Part shown: positions 41,136-56,312 of the stretch, in pieces
Layout: every line of letters begins with the position of its first letter
Numbering within the stretch: position 1 is the stretch's first letter
Source of the DNA: Escherichia coli
GTDB lineage: Bacteria > Pseudomonadota > Gammaproteobacteria > Enterobacterales > Enterobacteriaceae
Strand: one strand, 5' to 3'
DNA length: 64,000 nt
NCBI RefSeq assembly: GCF_024502345.1
Contig: NZ_JALDNN010000001.1
Position numbers and translations under genes: made by a program
The notes under the pieces: generated by a model
Told to the model about the DNA's origin: nothing
Seen by the model: only the letters and a program-made list of their open reading frames with translations
Databases searched by the model: none

Positions 41136-41514
41136 ATTAAGATGTTGACGGTTTTCGTGGATAAATTTGTGAATTTTTACTATGAAGGAAATACGACTCT
41201 TCCTTGAGTCAAAATCCCTGACAACTTAGGGTGATAGATAAAGGTCTTACGCAGCATGACATAATTTTCGATTTAAGCTATTTAAATTAATTTTTAAGAT
41301 CAAAACCCACTGAGATTTACTTACAAAACTAAACCTTGCTATGTCTGGTTAATCATGCGTTAATGAATGTCTGGTTTGTAACGAATTTATCTGAAGCAGT
41401 CGCTGTAATAATTTTATTCCTTGTTCCTGTTGAGATTTCCTTGTTAGCTTTTCTCTCTGATAAATTTTTTTCGGACCATTCTGCCCAAGGGCTTACTCAA
41501 TAAAGGTAATGTTT

Positions 41515-41727
41515 ATGTCTAATAAAATGACTGGTTTAGTTAAATGGTTTAATCCTGAAAAAGGTTTTGGTTTTATCACTCCAAAAGATGGTAGTAAAGA
41601 TGTGTTTGTTCACTTCTCTGCTATCCAGAGTAATGATTTCAAGACGTTGAATGAGAATCAGGAAGTTGAATTTAGTGTTGAACAGGGACCTAAAGGCCCC
41701 ACGGCAGTTAATGTCGTGGCTGTATAA
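41515..41727 (+). CDS. cspI: Cold-shock protein, CspI/CspB-like (prophage-borne)
   Basis: 70 aa, [73 protein letters not shown]1 motif KGFGFI, RNP2 motif VFVHF. Nearly identical to the remembered K-12 CspI. A long AT-rich leader lies upstream. Confidence 0.9.
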
Positions 41728-41926
41728 GGTAACTGTTATTACTAATAATATTCACTTCAGATGTCCGTGTTGCCACGGATCTCAGTACCGAACGTCAAAC
41801 TTTGATGTTACTGAAAAAAATCCTTTCGGAGCAAAATGTATTTTTTGCAAATCAACAATGATTACATTTGATAATATTGCACTGTACATTCGTTCTGGTC
41901 AGTCTTCGTTAGAATTCAGAAAATAA
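41711..41926 (+). CDS. Small zinc-ribbon protein downstream of csp (possibly YmcF/YnfQ-type)
   Basis: An ATG at 41711 overlaps the csp 3' end. Reads ...[39 protein letters not shown] (CPCC...CIFC). Start codon is uncertain. Followed by a strong terminator. Confidence 0.55.
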
Positions 41927-41931
41927 ATTTC

Positions 41932-41955
41932 AGGCTCCTTATGGAGCCTTTTTTG
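41932..41955 (+). terminator. Rho-independent terminator
   Basis: aggctcc-ttat-ggagcct followed by tttttt. Confidence 0.85.
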
Positions 41956-41999
41956 TATGCTGAACCGACAATCTCTGTAAGAGACATCACGGTAAAATT

Positions 42000-42230
42000 A
42001 TGAAAAAAGTCATCGTTTTTTTTAATGCAGAACCAGCAGTTGTTGTAACCGTAATGAAAGGTATTACTACGATAATGCGTGAGTTTCCCAATGGGGAAAA
42101 AGCACACCTACCCGTGATGTCAGCGGGATTTCCATCTCTGACAGGAGACCATAAAATAGTTTATGTAGCCTCTGATCGTGATGTCAGTTCAGAAGAGATC
42201 CTCGAGGCAGCCTCGAAGCTTTTGAAATGA
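42000..42230 (+). CDS. Hypothetical 76-aa protein
   Basis: ORF MKKVIVFFNAEPAVVVTVMKGITTIMREFPNGEK... with a weak RBS. No family recognised. A stem-loop with a T-rich tail follows (about 42254-42295). Confidence 0.4.
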   Translation: MKKVIVFFNAEPAVVVTVMKGITTIMREFPNGEKAHLPVMSAGFPSLTGDHKIVYVASDRDVSSEEILEAASKLLK

Positions 42231-42434
42231 GATCTGGTTGTTTCGTGACCGACCCGGATTTTAGTACAGTGGTTTGTGTGGTCGCGAGCTCTTTTGCATG
42301 AAGATTGTACTGCAAACTATTGATAATTGAGTCTTTCTATTCTATCTTTTAAACATATCAGCGCTTATACAAGTGCTCTACGGGGAATGTAACATGCCTG
42401 GCGTTGATACGTTAGAGATCAAGAGAGGTAAACA

Positions 42435-42608
42435 ATGAACGTCGAAGATTTAAAAAGAAAAACTGAAGCGGATATTTCTGAATTCATCACAAAAAAAATT
42501 ATTGAACTCAAAAAAAAGACAGGAAAAGAAGTTTCCGATATCCAGTTTAATGCTCGTGAAAAAATGACTGGGCTTGAAAGCTATGATATTAAAATCACAT
42601 TAATCTAA
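42435..42608 (+). CDS. gnsB: GnsA/GnsB-family small protein (57 aa), not in the ORF track
   Basis: My translation is MNVEDLKRKTEADISEFITKKIIELKKKTGKEVSDIQFNAREKMTGLESYDIKITLI*. It closely resembles the remembered K-12 GnsB (...REKMTGLESYDVKIKIM). RBS agagagg. Confidence 0.8.
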   Translation: MNVEDLKRKTEADISEFITKKIIELKKKTGKEVSDIQFNAREKMTGLESYDIKITLI

Positions 42609-42632
42609 TTGTTATAAGACTCAGTTCGAGTG

Positions 42633-42668
42633 AAAAAGCATTATCTTGAAAGGTAATGCTTTTTTATT
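42633..42668 (+). terminator. Rho-independent terminator after the gnsB-like gene
   Basis: aaaaagcatta-tcttgaaagg-taatgcttttt followed by a T-run. Confidence 0.8.
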
Positions 42669-42741
42669 TCTGTCATAAAATTTAGAACGTTGTCAAAGCC
42701 TTCACTTCTAACCACAGATTTTCTGCTTACCTTTTAACGGG

Positions 42742-42918
42742 TCCTCCTTGACGATTCTGACCATCGAGGGGCAGCAGCGGCGCGGGATTTGGAGCATTTT
42801 TGATTCTTCACGCAACCATTTCAGCATTTGATGCTGATGACGGAACACTATCCCCGAATACACTGGGTTTGTTGCATTCTCTGATTCAAAAGAACACGGT
42901 GTGCTTCAACTTGGCTGA
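42742..42918 (+). pseudogene. Decayed paralogue of the 67-aa gene at 40739-40942
   Basis: Three frame segments align to the intact copy: SLTILTIEGQQ vs SITVVLTAKQ, FDADDGTL vs FEADDGEV, and PEYTGFVAFSDSKEHGVLQLG* vs PEYTGLIAYSESLEHSVLQLDN*. There is no start codon and at least two frameshifts. Confidence 0.7.
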
Positions 42919-43011
42919 GCAGGCATTACAGCAGACATTCACTGAGTGCCTGCGACAAAGTTAAATGGCATCAAGCATGCGATGATGATTGATTAATAAT
43001 TGAGCTATGCA

Positions 43012-43020
43012 TGGTATAAT
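43012..43020 (+). promoter_or_regulatory. Extended -10 promoter element (TGgTATAAT) for the downstream zinc-ribbon ORF
   Basis: tggtataat lies 30 nt upstream of the ATG at 43050. A ttgatt at 42989-42994 is 20 bp away, which is too far for an ideal -35. Confidence 0.5.
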
Positions 43021-43049
43021 AAGCCCCATTCATTGAAAGGTTAACCACC

Positions 43050-43214
43050 ATGTCATTTTTCGATTATGCAATGCAGCGTGTTGGGCTTGCAGCCAATACG
43101 ACTGTCATGTGCCCGATATGCGGACATAAATCCACACACTCGACCACGAAAGTACGCCAACAACAGGCGTTACTTTGCCCTAAATGTAAATCGCTGTTTG
43201 TCATTCACAGATAA
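43050..43214 (+). CDS. Small zinc-ribbon protein (54 aa), not in the ORF track
   Basis: My translation is MSFFDYAMQRVGLAANTTVMCPICGHKSTHSTTKVRQQQALLCPKCKSLFVIHR* (CPIC...CPKC). It has its own promoter-like element and two downstream terminators. Track ORF 43066 is the same DNA in another frame. Confidence 0.6.
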   Translation: MSFFDYAMQRVGLAANTTVMCPICGHKSTHSTTKVRQQQALLCPKCKSLFVIHR

Positions 43215-43233: not shown

Positions 43234-43292
43234 AACCGCCTACGGGCGGTTTTTTATTGCCATCACAAAGGCCACTTTCGAGTGGCTTTTTT
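43234..43292 (+). terminator. Two tandem rho-independent terminators
   Basis: aaccgcc-tacg-ggcggtt followed by tttt (43234-43256), and gccact-ttcg-agtggc followed by tttttt (43271-43292). Confidence 0.8.
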
Positions 43293-43370
43293 AATGGTCA
43301 TCACGACGGGTATTACAGCAGGAATTACTGAGTGCCTGCGATAATGCTCAATATTTTTATCGGAGTGAAT

Positions 43371-43559
43371 ATGCCACCGCGCACACCGAAGGCCGGCCTG
43401 AAAGGGGCGATACAAAAAAGGGAAAAAATGAAAAGACATAAGCGAAATAAAAAAGCCACCACATCTGCAAATGTGATGGCTGGCATTCGGATTAATTCAG
43501 GTTGGCTGAATAAGTTAGCCGCAGATATTACTAAAATAATTAATGAAGCATGTCCCTAA
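43371..43559 (+). CDS. Hypothetical very basic 62-aa protein
   Basis: RBS ggagtgaatATG. MPPRTPKAGLKGAIQKREKMKRHKRNKKATTSANVMAGIRINSGWLNKLAADITKIINEACP, with a Lys/Arg-rich N-half and an amphipathic C-terminal helix. Its 3' end overlaps the convergent gene by 20 nt. Confidence 0.45.
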   Translation: MPPRTPKAGLKGAIQKREKMKRHKRNKKATTSANVMAGIRINSGWLNKLAADITKIINEACP

Positions 43560-43779
43560 TCTCATCTGAGATATCTCTTGGCCCTGCAGGCTGAGGCGCA
43601 ACCAACCGGGTCGGAAGTCTCTCGAAGAAACCACCACCACCATGATGATGAAAACCCCGGTTATTTTTATAACTATTGAAGTTACTGTCGGTAGTGAGAA
43701 GGATGTTGCACTGGTGCGAGCAGTCAACAACAACGACATCACCTGCATTCAGGTGCATTCGTTTGTGAAGAAATTGCAT
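43540..43779 (-). CDS. Hypothetical 79-aa protein, DUF1883-like (tentative)
   Basis: Strong RBS (gataaggagacttATG on the minus strand). MQFLHKRMHLNAGDVVVVDCSHQCNILLTTDSNFNSYKNNRGFHHHGGGGFFERLPTRLVAP... resembles the remembered DUF1883 pattern (HLNxGDxVVVxCSxxCNIxLxxDxNFxxxKNG). It looks shorter than typical family members. Confidence 0.5.
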   Translation of the reverse strand: MQFLHKRMHLNAGDVVVVDCSHQCNILLTTDSNFNSYKNNRGFHHHGGGGFFERLPTRLVAPQPAGPRDISDEIRDMLH

Positions 43780-43947
43780 AAGTCTCCTTATCAAGAGGCA
43801 ATCAGCACTCCTCTCAAGGCTGGTACGCCAACGTCCCACCGCTGACGGGCTGAGCCATTACCTTACCCAGACTCAACGATAAGTAACATCCTGATATTCA
43901 GACAGTAACTGTAATCGATAATGCTGAAGAATAGGCAGTAAATACAG

Positions 43948-44595
43948 GTGACTGATATGGCAACACTGAAGGATTTATCAAACCAGTTAAAGCAACTGCA
44001 AAAGCAAATCCCGTTTGCCACAGCTCAGGCGATGACAAAAGTTGTACGCCAGATTGAGTTGGCTCAGAAGACGGCATTCGAACGACATCTGGAGAGCCCC
44101 ACGCCGTTTACCGTTAAATCAGTTGGTTCGGTGGCGGCAAGAAAGAACAATCTGACCGCAAAGGTTTTTGTCCGTGATACCGCTGCTGGTTATCTGGAAC
44201 CATTCGAGTTTGGCGGAGAGCACAAGCTCAATAGCCAGGCTCTATTAAATCCCAAGAACGTTAAGCTAAACAAATACGGCAACATGCCGCGTAATAAGCT
44301 CTCACAGCTTAAAGCAAAGGAAAATGTATTCGTAGGTGAGGTTGATGGCGTTAACGCTGTCTGGCAGCGTAAGAAGCCGATGAAAGCTAAGAAGCGACGG
44401 GCCAAACGTTCCGCTAACGGGACGCGAAGACCGAAACGCAAACAGCGTTCTCCAAAGCTTTTGATCCGGTTTGGTGATGCGCTACCTGTGACTCCAGTGC
44501 TGGGGTATATGGATAGGGCCCGTACCATGGCGAACGCACTGCTACCGTCTGCTTTAAATCAGGCGATAGCAGAAGCCATCAGGACGGCAAAATAA
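43948..44595 (+). CDS. Phage protein, possibly lambda gpZ / HK97 gp10-like tail-completion family (tentative)
   Basis: 215 aa. N-terminal IPFATAQAMTKVVRQIELAQKTAFERHLESPTPFTVKSV and an internal poly-basic stretch RKKPMKAKKRRAKRSANGTRRPKRKQR recall gpZ-type proteins. GTG start (alternative ATG at 43957). Located upstream of cos, apart from the other structural genes. Confidence 0.4.
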   Translation: MTDMATLKDLSNQLKQLQKQIPFATAQAMTKVVRQIELAQKTAFERHLESPTPFTVKSVGSVAARKNNLTAKVFVRDTAAGYLEPFEFGGEHKLNSQALLNPKNVKLNKYGNMPRNKLSQLKAKENVFVGEVDGVNAVWQRKKPMKAKKRRAKRSANGTRRPKRKQRSPKLLIRFGDALPVTPVLGYMDRARTMANALLPSALNQAIAEAIRTAK

Positions 44596-44632
44596 AAGCA
44601 GTAACTTATAAGTTAATTTCGCAAGCTTTTAT
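44592..44632. terminator. Candidate bidirectional terminator hairpin between convergent genes
   Basis: Outer arms ataaaagc / gcttttat enclose the 14-bp palindrome taacttataagtta (44602-44615). The structure spans both stop codons. Confidence 0.4.
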
Positions 44633-45109
44633 GAAGCTGTTTACTGCAGTTGTCGATCCAGAAACATTGGCTGACATGGAATGCTGGTTTCCGCCATCCT
44701 TTGTTTGCACACCAACTAACACTTTGGATTTCGCCCCCTGAAGCTGCTTAAGCACTGTTTTCAGTTGGTCCGTGTCATCCGATTGAATCTGGAGGCTCTG
44801 AACATTACGTCTTGAAAGGGTAGCATCGAGCTTCACTGCGGTATTCCCGTCGACCTTCATTATCAGGTCCATTGGTACCTCTGATAGTGATTCGGTGCTT
44901 TTATCCATTTCAACGTATGCCGCCGATAGCTTTTCTTTAGTGCAGTCAAACACAATGGCGCCATTGTCGGATGAAACCTCGCCAAGCATCATTGCTTTCT
45001 TACCACCAGAGAAAAGGTCATCTTCAGTATTAGTTACCCACTGGGCATGAGCAATTGGTGATGCCAGCACTGCGGCTACGAAAGTTATTTTGATTATATT
45101 GTTACCCAT
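44606..45109 (-). CDS. Exported (signal-peptide) protein of unknown function, accessory gene on the opposite strand
   Basis: 167 aa from MGNNIIKITFVAAVLASPIAHA|QWV, with RBS aaggagaatgtaATG. Two Cys residues. No family recognised. The track ORF has an 11-codon extension. Confidence 0.65.
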   Translation of the reverse strand: MGNNIIKITFVAAVLASPIAHAQWVTNTEDDLFSGGKKAMMLGEVSSDNGAIVFDCTKEKLSAAYVEMDKSTESLSEVPMDLIMKVDGNTAVKLDATLSRRNVQSLQIQSDDTDQLKTVLKQLQGAKSKVLVGVQTKDGGNQHSMSANVSGSTTAVNSFIKACEINL

Positions 45110-45252
45110 TACATTCTCCTTGTATTGAATAGGAATAATCATAGTCGGAGCGAATGGTCGAAGCCATTAAAAAAATGGGTCCTTCCTGAGACTTTTGTAA
45201 GGCACGGGCATTGCGCGCCGCGGTGTTTTCCTAGCTACAACTTTCAGATTTG

Positions 45253-45400
45253 TGTCCCATGTCCCACCTCTGGCGATCATTACGGACACCTCGCCAGCTC
45301 TGGCTATTCCAGTTTATTCCAGTGGGACATTCTGGTGGGACATGGCAAAAATGTCCCAGGCGAATGTCCCACCCCAGAAAATGTCCCAGGTGATGTCCCA
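45253..45400. promoter_or_regulatory. cosB-like array of eight TGTCCCA heptamers (6 direct, 2 inverted) upstream of the small terminase gene
   Basis: Direct copies at 45253, 45260, 45352, 45365, 45382 and 45394; inverted (tgggaca) at 45323 and 45336. A ~25-bp unit aaaatgtcccagg(c/t)ga(a)tgtccca occurs twice. The last copy abuts the terS ATG. Confidence 0.6.
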
Positions 45401-45969
45401 TGACCACGATGAACCAGAGTCAGTACGCACAACATTCAGGTGTGGATCGCAAAACAATTGGTCGGTGGATTAAAGCCGGGCGCTTCATTGTGATGGACGG
45501 AGACCTGATTGACGTAGAGGCCAGCGATGCGGCATTGAAGAAAAACCGCGATGGCAAAGACCCGCGCGCCTCGAACGCGAAGAAAAAGAAAACTCCCGTC
45601 GTTAGCGATAACGATGATGACGGTGATGAAATCAATAAAACTGTCCGCCAGATAATGCTCACTGAAGGGGCAGATCTTTCGAGAGAGGAAGCGGGACGTA
45701 TCCGCGAGAATTACATGGCCCTGCAGGCAAAGCTGCAGTATGAAAAAGACAGCGGCCAGCTTATTGAGCTGACAGCAGCCGAGGAGGTTTTATTCAACGC
45801 CTTTCGCCAACAGCGTGATGCCTGGCTTAACTGGCCGTCCAGGGTGGCGCCGCTAATGGCTGCTGATCTGGATGTACCGGCGGACAGGATGACAGAGGTG
45901 CTGATTGAACATGTCCACAAACACATCTCAGTCCTCGGAGAGCCAGAGTTTAACCCGGCAGAAGATTGA
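45400..45969 (+). CDS. Terminase small subunit (Nu1-like, N-terminal winged HTH)
   Basis: 189 aa. MTTMNQSQYAQHSGVDRKTIGRWIKAGRF has an HTH like lambda Nu1 (KKQLADIFGASIRTIQNWQEQG). Sits directly upstream of the GpA-type large subunit. Confidence 0.8.
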   Translation: MTTMNQSQYAQHSGVDRKTIGRWIKAGRFIVMDGDLIDVEASDAALKKNRDGKDPRASNAKKKKTPVVSDNDDDGDEINKTVRQIMLTEGADLSREEAGRIRENYMALQAKLQYEKDSGQLIELTAAEEVLFNAFRQQRDAWLNWPSRVAPLMAADLDVPADRMTEVLIEHVHKHISVLGEPEFNPAED

Positions 45970-54240: not shown

Positions 54241-54438
54241 ATGTTTGTTAAGCCGAACAACGGGCTCAGCGTTCGCTGCCCCGTCAAGGGCATCCCATTG
54301 CCTAAAGAGGGTGCTGAAGTACCTGACAATATTTTCTGGCGTCGCCGTCTGAGCGATGGGGACGTGATCCTCTCTAAAAAGGATGAGGGCGCGCCAGAGA
54401 AACAATCATTACCTAAAAAAGCGGGAGAAAATGAATGA
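54241..54438 (+). CDS. Small Mu gp38-like protein (DUF2635-like, tentative)
   Basis: 65 aa, MFVKPNNGLSVRCPVKGIPLPKEGAEVPDNIFWRRRLSDGDV, directly upstream of the sheath gene as in Mu-like tail modules. Confidence 0.55.
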   Translation: MFVKPNNGLSVRCPVKGIPLPKEGAEVPDNIFWRRRLSDGDVILSKKDEGAPEKQSLPKKAGENE

Positions 54439-55937
54439 CCGTACCTTTCGCTCGTGTTCCCGATAACCTGCGGGTAGGGCTTTTCTTCGTTGAGTTTGAT
54501 AACTCAATGGCGAATAACGCCACTGCCACGCAGCGCACCCTGCTTATCGGTGGGATGCTCAGTACCGGCTCAACCCTCCCTGGTATTCCGCAGCGAGTTT
54601 CCTCTTCGGATACCGTCGGTGAGCTGACAGGAAAAGGGGGAATTCTGCAGGCCATGATGGCGGCGTATCAGAAAAATGATACCGCAGCCGAAGTCTGGAT
54701 CCTGCCGCTGGAGGAAGACTCCGATTCCATGGTGGCTGCAACCGGCACCATTAGAGTGAGCAGCGCACCGACGGAAACCGGAGTGATCTCCCTTTATATT
54801 GCTGGTGAGCGCATTCAGTTGACCGTTGTAGCAACAGATACGGTGGCAGCGATCGCCACCTCTCTGGCCGCGGCGATTAACGCAAAAACCACGCTACCTG
54901 TAACCGCCAGTGCGACTACGGATACCGTAACCCTGACCGCGAAGAATCTTGGTGCTACGGGTAATGGGATCGACATTCGCCTGAACTTCCTCGGCTTACC
55001 TGGAGGCGAGTCCACACCTGCAGGCCTGGAACTGACGATTACTGCTATGTCTAACGGAGTCGGGGCTCCGGATATTACCGGCGAGCTGGCAAACCTGCAG
55101 GATCGGACATTCGATTTCATCATCAACCCTTACGACGATACAACCTCGTTGAATGTGATGAAGGAGTTCCTGTCAGACACTGGCGGTCGCTGGGCATGGG
55201 ACAAGCAGCTTTATGGCCATTCCTTTGGTACAACCACCGGGACTTACGCCCAGCTCGGTACCAAAGGTGAGCTGCGCAATAACCAGCATGAGACCCTGCT
55301 GGGCGTAAATAAATCGCCGTCCCCTTCCTGGGCATGGTCTGCAGCTTACACCGGCGCAGCTGCGGTGAGTCTGCGTAATGACCCCGGCCGCCCGCTACAG
55401 TCGCTCGCTGTTCAGGGGGTGCTTGCGCCAGAACTGCAGGATCGCTTTGAGCTGACCGAGCGTAACAATCTGCTGTACAGCGGCATTTCGACATTTACGG
55501 TCGATGACGATGGCACGGTGCGCATTGAAAACCTGATCACCACCTACCAGAAAAACAGCTATGGCGATGCAGATGACAGTTATCTGGAAGTGGAGACGCT
55601 GTTCAGCCTGATGTTTGTGACCCGCTACCTGCGCACAGCGGTGACCAGCAAGTTTGGCCGTATGAAGCTTGCTGCGGATGGAACCCGATTTGCACCTGGC
55701 GCGGCGATCGTCACGCCAAACATTATCAAGGCCGATCAGATTGCCGAGTACCAGACTCTGGTATGGAACGGTTATGCGCAGGATGCGGAGGCATTCGCAA
55801 AAAATATCATCGTCGAGCAGAACGCCAAAAATCCGAACCGCGTCGATGTGCTGTGGCCGGGAACCCTCATGAACCAGTTGCGCATTTTCGCGCTGCTCAA
55901 TCAGTTCCGCACTCGGGCTGAATCAACAGGAGCTTAA
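54435..55937 (+). CDS. Contractile tail sheath protein (Mu gpL-like)
   Basis: 500 aa. N-terminus VPFARVPDNLRVGLFFVEFDNS resembles the Mu L N-terminus. Followed by the tube gene. Confidence 0.85.
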   Translation: MTVPFARVPDNLRVGLFFVEFDNSMANNATATQRTLLIGGMLSTGSTLPGIPQRVSSSDTVGELTGKGGILQAMMAAYQKNDTAAEVWILPLEEDSDSMVAATGTIRVSSAPTETGVISLYIAGERIQLTVVATDTVAAIATSLAAAINAKTTLPVTASATTDTVTLTAKNLGATGNGIDIRLNFLGLPGGESTPAGLELTITAMSNGVGAPDITGELANLQDRTFDFIINPYDDTTSLNVMKEFLSDTGGRWAWDKQLYGHSFGTTTGTYAQLGTKGELRNNQHETLLGVNKSPSPSWAWSAAYTGAAAVSLRNDPGRPLQSLAVQGVLAPELQDRFELTERNNLLYSGISTFTVDDDGTVRIENLITTYQKNSYGDADDSYLEVETLFSLMFVTRYLRTAVTSKFGRMKLAADGTRFAPGAAIVTPNIIKADQIAEYQTLVWNGYAQDAEAFAKNIIVEQNAKNPNRVDVLWPGTLMNQLRIFALLNQFRTRAESTGA

Positions 55938-55940
55938 ACG

Positions 55941-56312
55941 ATGGCAGGTGATACTACTAACCGCCTGGCGGGAACCGCCTATGTCACTGTTAACGGTGTG
56001 ACGGTAATGGTGGAGGGCTCGTTTAAATACCAGGCTGCCACCGTAAACCGTACCACCCTGACAGGGATGGATGGTGTGCACGGATATAAGGAAAAACCTG
56101 TGGCGCCATACATTTCTGCCCGACTGCGTGACAGTGGCGGAACGAATGTGCAGGGCTTTAACCAGCAGACGAACGTCAACGTGATCGCCGAGCTGGCTAA
56201 CGGGAAAACTATCATTGGCCGTTCACTCTGGACGGTCAACGTCCAGGAAGTGGAAAGCGAAGATGCAGTATTTGATGTTCGCTGGGAAGGCCGCGACGTA
56301 ACGGAGAACTAA
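55941..56312 (+). CDS. Tail tube protein (Mu gpM-like)
   Basis: 123 aa, in the canonical sheath-tube-chaperone-tape measure order. Confidence 0.8.
   Translation: MAGDTTNRLAGTAYVTVNGVTVMVEGSFKYQAATVNRTTLTGMDGVHGYKEKPVAPYISARLRDSGGTNVQGFNQQTNVNVIAELANGKTIIGRSLWTVNVQEVESEDAVFDVRWEGRDVTEN

Follow-up and report, generated by a model that had tools for sequence, protein, structure and literature searches.

The right end of an Escherichia coli cos prophage as a probable mosaic: a predicted tail completion gene, an antisense moron and a truncated remnant

In phage lambda, the interval from the lysis genes to cos contains the small antisense gene bor, which the prophage expresses and which encodes Bor, an outer-membrane lipoprotein. 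A second described system of relevance to the present work is the tail completion protein of phage 80α, gp51, which resides in the neck of the virion as a monomer, where it closes off the DNA end and, together with the N-termini of three tape-measure proteins, builds a five-stranded sheet and a five-helix bundle; besides the DNA end it contacts the head-tail connector, with which 60% of its external contacts are made (10.1101/2024.12.10.627806). Lambda gpZ has been predicted to possess the same tail-completion architecture, with an extra beta domain at its apex (10.1101/2024.12.10.627806). Here we examine the right end of a prophage contained in a 64,000-nucleotide stretch of Escherichia coli DNA (the window; RefSeq assembly GCF_024502345.1, contig NZ_JALDNN010000001.1), where four genes, numbered 1 to 4 from left to right, lie between a run of small cargo genes and the cos site. 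On balance we consider it probable that these four genes are a mosaic of independent pieces, of which gene 3 encodes a tail completion protein, gene 4 is a moron, gene 2 is a remnant and gene 1 is a doubtful open reading frame (ORF).

Four genes with separate distributions

A sequence-only reading of this DNA had placed four ORFs just upstream of cos and had proposed that they constitute a single accessory block. All four are present, at or near the positions given to them, and their proximity to the packaging site is borne out by the location of cosN (45208-45219). The 12-nucleotide cohesive-end sequence found there, GCATTGCGCGCC, is identical to the 12-nucleotide 5' overhang that was mapped experimentally in the related Serratia phage vB_SspM_BZS1 (PMC7556043), and the right end of BZS1 stops exactly at the equivalent ...GCACGG. 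Because cosN can be placed this exactly, the region of genes 1 to 4 is understood to be the extreme right end of the virion chromosome.

The unity of the block is a different matter. Our close set comprises 80 IMG/VR loci with a gene 3 homologue 81-100% identical to that of the window (77 of them with enough sequence for the surroundings to be read), and all four genes occur together in only one of the 80, each gene following a distribution of its own. The identical four-gene arrangement does recur in hundreds of assemblies, the named ones being mostly of the Citrobacter freundii complex, as are most of the named public records that hold the exact proteins of this prophage; the recurrence is most simply explained by the spread of one prophage, mainly within that complex. 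Nor did membership of a defence family emerge when this was checked, as PADLOC-DB v2 gave no match for genes 1-3 and only two for gene 4 (E 0.007 and 0.018), which we read as noise. NCBIfam held nothing meaningful for any of the four products (gene 1 gave a single line far below cut-off), megablast of the region against 50,697 phage records returned no match, and single-sequence searches of PDB sequences with genes 2, 3 and 4 returned noise only.

Several of the functional suggestions made for the block can be judged gene by gene. The view that none of the four has a recognisable part in lysis or morphogenesis fails for gene 3, which has a predicted tail-completion fold and is the first gene of the packaging/morphogenesis module. 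The interpretation as lysogen-expressed cargo suits genes 4 and 2, but not genes 1 and 3; genes 4 and 2 behave as morons, being antisense to the late operon, patchy among close relatives and found in unrelated phage contexts. A toxin-antitoxin-like pairing of genes 1 and 2 is not upheld, given that gene 1 has no credible family match, gene 2 is truncated and chimeric, and the two are rarely found together.

Gene 3 and its place ahead of cos

Gene 3 had been read as a protein of 215 residues from position 43948. An ORF does open there, with a GTG, but the start is most likely the ATG at 43957 (212 residues), because nearly all homologues have 212-213 residues and an AGGTGA Shine-Dalgarno sequence precedes that ATG. 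The protein matches phrog_1924, "minor tail protein", over its full length (1.9e-62, residues 4-215 on profile positions 7-237 of 237), and belongs to a family of at least 1199 clusters at 90% identity (1147 representatives at 50% identity) whose members are mostly labelled hypothetical, a few carrying the names "minor tail protein Z" or "HK97 gp10 family". An AlphaFold2 model (predicted local distance difference test score, pLDDT, 92.4) places a beta-rich insert at the apex, between an N-terminal helix of 41 residues and a C-terminal helix of 27, in agreement with the parts of a tail-completion fold: a long, bent N-terminal helix, an extended apical loop with a beta-hairpin (and in gpZ also a beta domain), and a long C-terminal helix. 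We liken the model to tail completion proteins because its architecture fits both the published class and the description of gpZ. Its sole strong structural match is a protein seen inside a virion neck, 80α gp51 (PDB 9mu2 chain P), and the named Foldseek matches in BFVD bear the label "HK97 gp10 family" or "tail component". Its assignment as a virion component is thus confident where structure prediction is concerned, an outcome that had been named beforehand as telling against an accessory role.

The earlier description of this protein as only loosely like gpZ or gp10 stands with respect to sequence, but its fold is confidently predicted to be of the tail-completion type. The Pfam family Minor_tail_Z was matched weakly by 4 of 51 gene 3 relatives (best E 4.7e-4), and alignment of the gene 3 family to the single lambda gpZ sequence with hhalign was weak (E 0.0026, probability 11.6%), albeit end to end and with a W-x-x-QR motif paired. 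As Minor_tail_Z and gp10 matches are weak or absent at the sequence level, we place gene 3 by fold class and in neither Pfam family.

The gene order around gene 3 is conserved to a degree that argues for a place in the packaging and head module. In 76 of the 77 close loci, gene 3 is followed on its own strand, at a distance of 240-860 bp, by the gene for the small terminase subunit (terS). A divergent clade, whose gene 3-family members are 38-50% identical to their own query, has a GpA-type large terminase gene in the corresponding orientation, 0.6-2.2 kb downstream, in 69 of 70 informative loci. The exception in that clade (L157, 2912-5630) has the gene 3-family gene directly downstream of the large terminase gene rather than upstream of cos and terS. 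The order gene 3, cos, terminase is also found in phages phiNP, BZS1, phiAP1, RcCronus and R4C, in Yersinia phage YpM_44 and in contigs L023 and L024, which are metagenomic or genomic. In RcCronus and R4C the distant gene 3 homologues are the last gene, the RcCronus large terminase (TerL) is a distant end-to-end homologue of that of the window, and two contigs with distant gene 3 relatives end 125-140 bp after the gene, as would fit a genome end. Complete E. coli genomes yield matches of 93-96% that begin at or within ~30 nt of the gene 3 start and continue through gene 4, cos and terS, and for this reason we set a module boundary at the gene 3 start. Synteny shows gene 3 to move together with cos, a terminase of lambda type and the genes for the gpW/FII connector, irrespective of tail type; it is the first gene of a conserved packaging/head module that is found with siphovirus and myovirus tails alike.

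Considering fold and position together, gene 3 is very probably a displaced tail-completion, that is virion assembly, gene, of the class of lambda gpZ, HK97 gp10, SPP1 gp16.1 and 80α gp51. Its product would act as a single copy inside the neck, by analogy with 80α gp51, with an apical loop that carries a Lys/Arg-rich tract capping the end of the packaged DNA, and with a beta-hairpin and two long helices binding the N-termini of the tape-measure trimer. From its strand and position, the gene would be transcribed as the last of the late operon before cos. Because tail completion proteins contact both the DNA end and the head-tail connector, gene 3 may be adapted to the cos end and to connectors of the gpW/FII type, and share their inheritance.

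A number of observations weigh against this assignment. The window protein has no Pfam match at E up to 1, a profile search of PDB sequences with the gene 3 family gave no match, and the links of gene 3 to gpZ and gp10 remain weak where sequence alone is compared. Mass spectrometry of virion bands from sodium dodecyl sulphate polyacrylamide gel electrophoresis (SDS-PAGE) identified 13 proteins in BZS1, and the gene 3 homologue p72 was not among them (PMC7556043). This non-detection is a weak argument, because a protein present at one copy per virion is easily missed; 80α gp51 was likewise missed in a crude preparation (10.1101/2024.12.10.627806). Last, gene 3 lies outside the canonical slot, which runs from head closure to the tail terminator or major tail gene and in the window holds an unrelated 181-residue protein and DUF2635. 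A position in the neck module is typical of the tail completion class without defining it. In favour of the assignment, the neck module of the window reads as an FI-position protein, an FII-like head-closure protein, the 181-residue protein, DUF2635, sheath and tube, and no recognisable gpZ/gp10-like gene was found in it; in the siphoviruses RcCronus and R4C the annotated head-closure gene is followed directly by the major tail gene, with no tail-completion gene annotated between the two. The 181-residue protein was considered as a hidden tail completion protein and rejected, as it has no profile similarity to the gene 3 family; from its position and N-terminal sequence pattern we suspect it to be the tail terminator.

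Gene 4 and the junction of genes 1 and 2

We read gene 4 as a moron, probably self-contained, that is inserted in antisense orientation between the gene 3 stop and cos. Alignment with relatives that lack it delimits a cassette of about 580 bp, and in these empty-site relatives the gene 3 stop lies ~47 bp from cosN and the gap between gene 3 and terS is ~242 bp, so that, as is characteristic of a moron, the flanking genes are adjacent where the insert is missing. The cassette occurs in 39 of the 77 close loci; 30 have no insert at this site, and the remaining 8 hold a different one, exemplified by small antisense ORFs in L014. The signal peptide that had been ascribed to gene 4 is supported by an N-terminal segment of that kind ending AHA|QW, and the gene is preceded by an AAGGAGA Shine-Dalgarno sequence; A22 and W24 are invariant across 21 homologues. 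The family is small and phage-borne, with 33 clusters, of which every one that has a name comes from Enterobacterales. Two temperate phage types that are unrelated to each other have the gene, in each case at a genome end, and the Mu-like prophages with a homologue occupy at least five different chromosomal sites. In E. coli Mu-like prophages (L005-L009, 6001-6504), a homologue of 63% identity follows com-mom as the final gene of the right end. In terms of predicted structure, the nearest fold is that of IalB, and the likeness is weak; a Pfam scan of 21 gene 4 relatives gave scattered noise and no IalB match, and a profile search of PDB sequences with the gene 4 family gave nothing relevant. 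The product would most likely be exported to the periplasm of the lysogen and act upon the envelope, for example in exclusion or host interaction.

The transcription signals proposed for the block fared unevenly. A scan of the spacer between genes 2 and 3 revealed no sigma-70-like site, contrary to the shared divergent promoter that had been suggested for the two. Upstream of gene 4, an ATGGCT/TATGAT element is a candidate promoter for that gene; it falls below the threshold of the standard scan, and stands at the same place in lambdoid-context variants whose protein identity is 100%, 74% and 61%. The long hairpin said to span the stop codons of genes 3 and 4 contains a real 14-bp palindrome, TAACTTATAAGTTA, that covers the gene 4 stop but misses that of gene 3. 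As a structure it is not exceptional (-16.3 kcal/mol, z = -1.54), given that 14 of 200 shuffled sequences fold as well. We also considered it as a bidirectional terminator for genes 3 and 4, and rejected it in that its fold energy lies within the shuffle range and the terminator scan did not pick it up.

Gene 2 was rightly seen as DUF1883-like (Pfam DUF1883, E 3.5e-15, 56.2 bits against a cut-off of 26), but the match extends only over profile positions 1-62 of 89. Intact stand-alone DUF1883 relatives have 87-89 residues. Up to residue 62, gene 2 agrees at 98% identity with the closest of them, P0305, which from there on reads ...HMGYWNVTIDLGGG...; the last 17 residues of gene 2, SQPAGPRDISDEIRDMLH, are foreign, and are common to a 90-residue phrog_36812 protein of L017. 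The gene 2 tail together with the whole of gene 1 is identical to a segment in HK97-type prophages (L017, L019), where gene 1 is convergent with the unrelated 90-residue phrog_36812 gene, and an intact 89-residue DUF1883 gene occupies the same slot in the related prophages L106-L109, paired with a different 65-residue ORF. For these reasons we regard the pair of genes 1 and 2, whose convergent 20-nucleotide overlap is confirmed, as a recombination junction that truncated a DUF1883 gene. In such an event the 3' end of gene 2 would have been replaced, leaving the 5' two-thirds of a stand-alone DUF1883 moron, and gene 1 would have arrived with the incoming segment. Because of this replacement, gene 2 is probably non-functional; weighing against that view, the truncated gene is kept exactly in many assemblies, and a residual function is possible. 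Klebsiella phage ST13-OXA48phi12.5 has another stand-alone DUF1883 copy, inserted antisense in its tail region, and the literature covered by our search refers to DUF1883 solely as a domain that partners bacterial TIR proteins (PMC9153377). As for gene 1, no credible match was obtained in Pfam, PHROG, NCBIfam or PADLOC, tblastn against the 50,697 phage records gave no match, and the gene was found in just 1 of 78 related IMG/VR loci; it may not encode a protein.

The prophage of the window is itself a mosaic, in which a lambda-like packaging/head module (terS, GpA-type terL, gpW, a lambda-type portal, an S49 protease, a decoration protein and the major capsid protein) is joined to a Mu-like contractile tail module (DUF2635, sheath at 54435-55937 and tube at 55941-56312). 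The features discussed here are collected in Table 1. The ATGTCCCA repeats clustered between cosN and terS are probably binding sites of the small terminase (cosB).

Table 1. Positions of the genes, signals and neighbouring features discussed in the text, in window coordinates.
Feature	Position	Strand	Remarks
CspA-like cold-shock protein	41509-41727		cargo run upstream of gene 1
GnsAB-toxin-like protein	42435-42608		cargo run upstream of gene 1
YnfU-like zinc ribbon	43050-43214		cargo run upstream of gene 1
Strong terminator	43234-43251		end of cargo run, after the YnfU-like gene
Gene 1, very basic orphan ORF of 62 residues, coding status doubtful	43371-43559	+	inside a longer GTG-started ORF, 43332-43559
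Intrinsic-terminator-like hairpin, 12-bp stem then T run	43454-43481	-	downstream of gene 2, inside gene 1; good terminator for gene 2
Gene 2, 3'-truncated chimeric DUF1883 gene (79 residues)	43540-43779	-	junction at ~43592-43597
Gene 3, predicted gpZ/HK97-gp10-type tail completion protein	43957-44595	+	last late gene before cos
Gene 4 cassette, insertion of ~580 bp from the gene 3 stop to the conserved cos flank	44596-45175 (right edge approximate)	-	from alignment with empty-site relatives
Perfect 14-bp palindrome TAACTTATAAGTTA	44602-44615	.	over the gene 4 stop; part of a weak AT-rich hairpin
Gene 4, predicted secreted (periplasmic) protein of 167 residues, weakly IalB-like beta-sandwich fold, two invariant cysteines	44606-45109	-	
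Candidate gene 4 promoter	45138-45167	-	-35-like ATGGCT 45162-45167, -10-like TATGAT 45138-45143, 18-nucleotide gap, upstream T tract
cosN, 12-nucleotide cohesive-end sequence GCATTGCGCGCC	45208-45219	+	once in the 64-kb window; equals the BZS1 overhang
Seven ATGTCCCA repeats, gap between cosN and terS	45259-45400	.	all 7 copies of the 64-kb window; several as inverted pairs
Small terminase subunit gene terS	45400-45969	+	phrog_57 terminase small subunit, 4.6e-36
Neck protein of 181 residues	53692-54237		phrog_6774; where lambda has Z and U

The interval from the lysis genes to cos is a cargo hot spot. In the window, a run of small Qin-prophage-like cargo genes fills 41509-43214, between the lysis cassette and gene 1, and includes a YmcF-like protein gene in addition to those listed. 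Directly before the gene 3 homologue, Citrobacter phage phiNP (L003, 3805-4990) has genes for a sialyltransferase and a glycosyltransferase, and Serratia phage BZS1 (L002, 3571-3825) has a DNA polymerase III theta-like gene. Two close relatives of the window prophage carry antisense two-gene inserts between antiterminator and holin, encoding an NA37 protein with a RelA/SpoT-domain protein in L015 (14144-16221) and uncharacterised proteins of 315 and 149 residues in L012 (14158-15573), and these inserts look more defence-like than the block of genes 1 to 4. A further close relative, the prophage of E. coli ET846 (L001, 1579-4891), has replication genes annotated as frameshifted and a DnaB-like helicase gene split by ~1 kb; this copy of the prophage is probably defective.

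Alternative readings and relation to described systems

One alternative is the reading from which this work departed, namely that all four genes form one lysogen-expressed accessory system of two convergent pairs, be it for defence, superinfection exclusion, a toxin-antitoxin-like function or envelope modification. In its favour, genes 2 and 4 run against the late operon at a place known as a hot spot for cargo, the same four-gene arrangement recurs unchanged in hundreds of assemblies, and none of the four products has a credible functional annotation in Pfam or NCBIfam. These points must be set against the co-occurrence of all four genes in a single one of the 80 related viral loci, the predicted structural role of gene 3 and its linkage to terS, the truncated and chimeric state of gene 2, the lack of a gene 1 homologue in any phage record, and a PADLOC result made up of two weak gene 4 matches. 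The notion of a four-gene unit is largely refuted, and we hold a joint accessory system to be very improbable. For gene 3 taken by itself, the main rival is a packaging accessory, a protein that binds the cos end or assists the terminase in DNA maturation and does not become part of the virion. The almost invariant synteny with cos, terS and GpA-type terL across very distant phages of varied tail types is in keeping with such a role, as are the position directly after terL in L157, the basic tract of the product and the failure to detect the homologue in BZS1 virions. The same synteny, however, is expected of a tail completion protein that caps the cohesive end and contacts a gpW-type connector; moreover, the only strong structural match is to a protein inside the virion neck, no similarity to any packaging protein was seen in PDB, Pfam or PHROG searches, and these genomes have no other recognisable tail-completion gene. 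We therefore judge a packaging accessory to be improbable, and retain the tail-completion assignment for gene 3.

With respect to gene 4, the question is whether it is a superinfection-exclusion or anti-phage envelope protein, a periplasmic factor by which the lysogen would keep the DNA of incoming phages from entering or would disable their receptors. The optional, antisense nature of the cassette, its promoter-like element kept in position, a signal peptide in combination with two invariant cysteines, the presence in two unrelated temperate phage types at the genome end, and a position resembling that of lambda bor are all compatible with this. The protein, however, has no similarity to a known exclusion or defence protein (PADLOC), the IalB fold nearest to it is without a defined biochemical function, and a host-interaction or virulence factor or neutral cargo is equally possible; an exclusion or anti-phage role is rather unlikely. 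As a small, tractable prophage protein, predicted to be secreted, the gene 4 product is a reasonable, not exceptional, candidate for lysogenic conversion or exclusion. A broader proposal, to which we attach a tentative and minor share of belief, is that the gene 3 family (more than 1000 representatives at 50% identity, absent from Pfam) constitutes a distinct tail-completion lineage that co-evolved with cos, the lambda-type terminase and the connector and not with the tail, and that gene 4 is a new periplasmic exclusion or conversion factor common to lambdoid and Mu-like prophages. Were the lineage distinct, gene 3 would specifically recognise and cap the protruding right cohesive end, and the set tail completion protein-cos-terS-terL-gpW-portal would be swapped as one module between siphoviruses and myoviruses.

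The results have practical value. One apparent "undescribed system" can be dropped from the list of candidates, and a very common hypothetical protein of enterobacterial prophages receives a concrete annotation as a predicted tail completion protein before cos, for which the near-invariant order of tail completion gene, cos, terS and terL offers a useful annotation rule. The linkage bears on the recently opened question of how tail completion proteins act inside the neck, and provides a testable hint that tail completion proteins of this class are matched to the cohesive DNA end and head connector and not to the tail type.

In comparison with described proteins, gene 2 is alike the stand-alone DUF1883 proteins (PF08980, 87-89 residues) in that its residues 1-62 are 98% identical to an intact 89-residue protein, and unlike them in lacking the last ~27 residues of the domain, in place of which stand 17 foreign residues. 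Gene 4 shares 13% identity with IalB of Bartonella henselae (PDB 3dtd), and 0 of 21 family members match the IalB Pfam family. It resembles lambda bor in its small size, its position beside cos, its orientation against the late operon and the predicted export of its product, but has no lipobox cysteine, its signal peptide ending AHA|Q; no sequence similarity to Bor was seen, although no dedicated comparison was made. Gene 3 is about twice as long as 80α gp51, a member of the HK97 gp10 family, and differs from gp51 by its beta-rich, Lys/Arg-rich apical insert; the two are 12% identical. Phage 80α packages by the headful mechanism and has its gp51 gene between the head-tail joining and tail terminator genes, whereas the window prophage combines cos packaging with a contractile tail and has gene 3 before cos. 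The likeness to lambda gpZ lies in size (192 versus 212 residues), in the predicted succession of helix, apical beta domain and helix, and in a basic tract and the W-x-x-QR motif that coincide in the weak end-to-end alignment. The window protein nonetheless has no significant match to the Pfam model of gpZ (PF06763), the hhalign probability being that given above. The gpZ gene lies in the tail module between FII and U, whereas the gene 3 family lies directly upstream of cos, in a prophage that shares with lambda both the type of its cos site and a GpA terminase.

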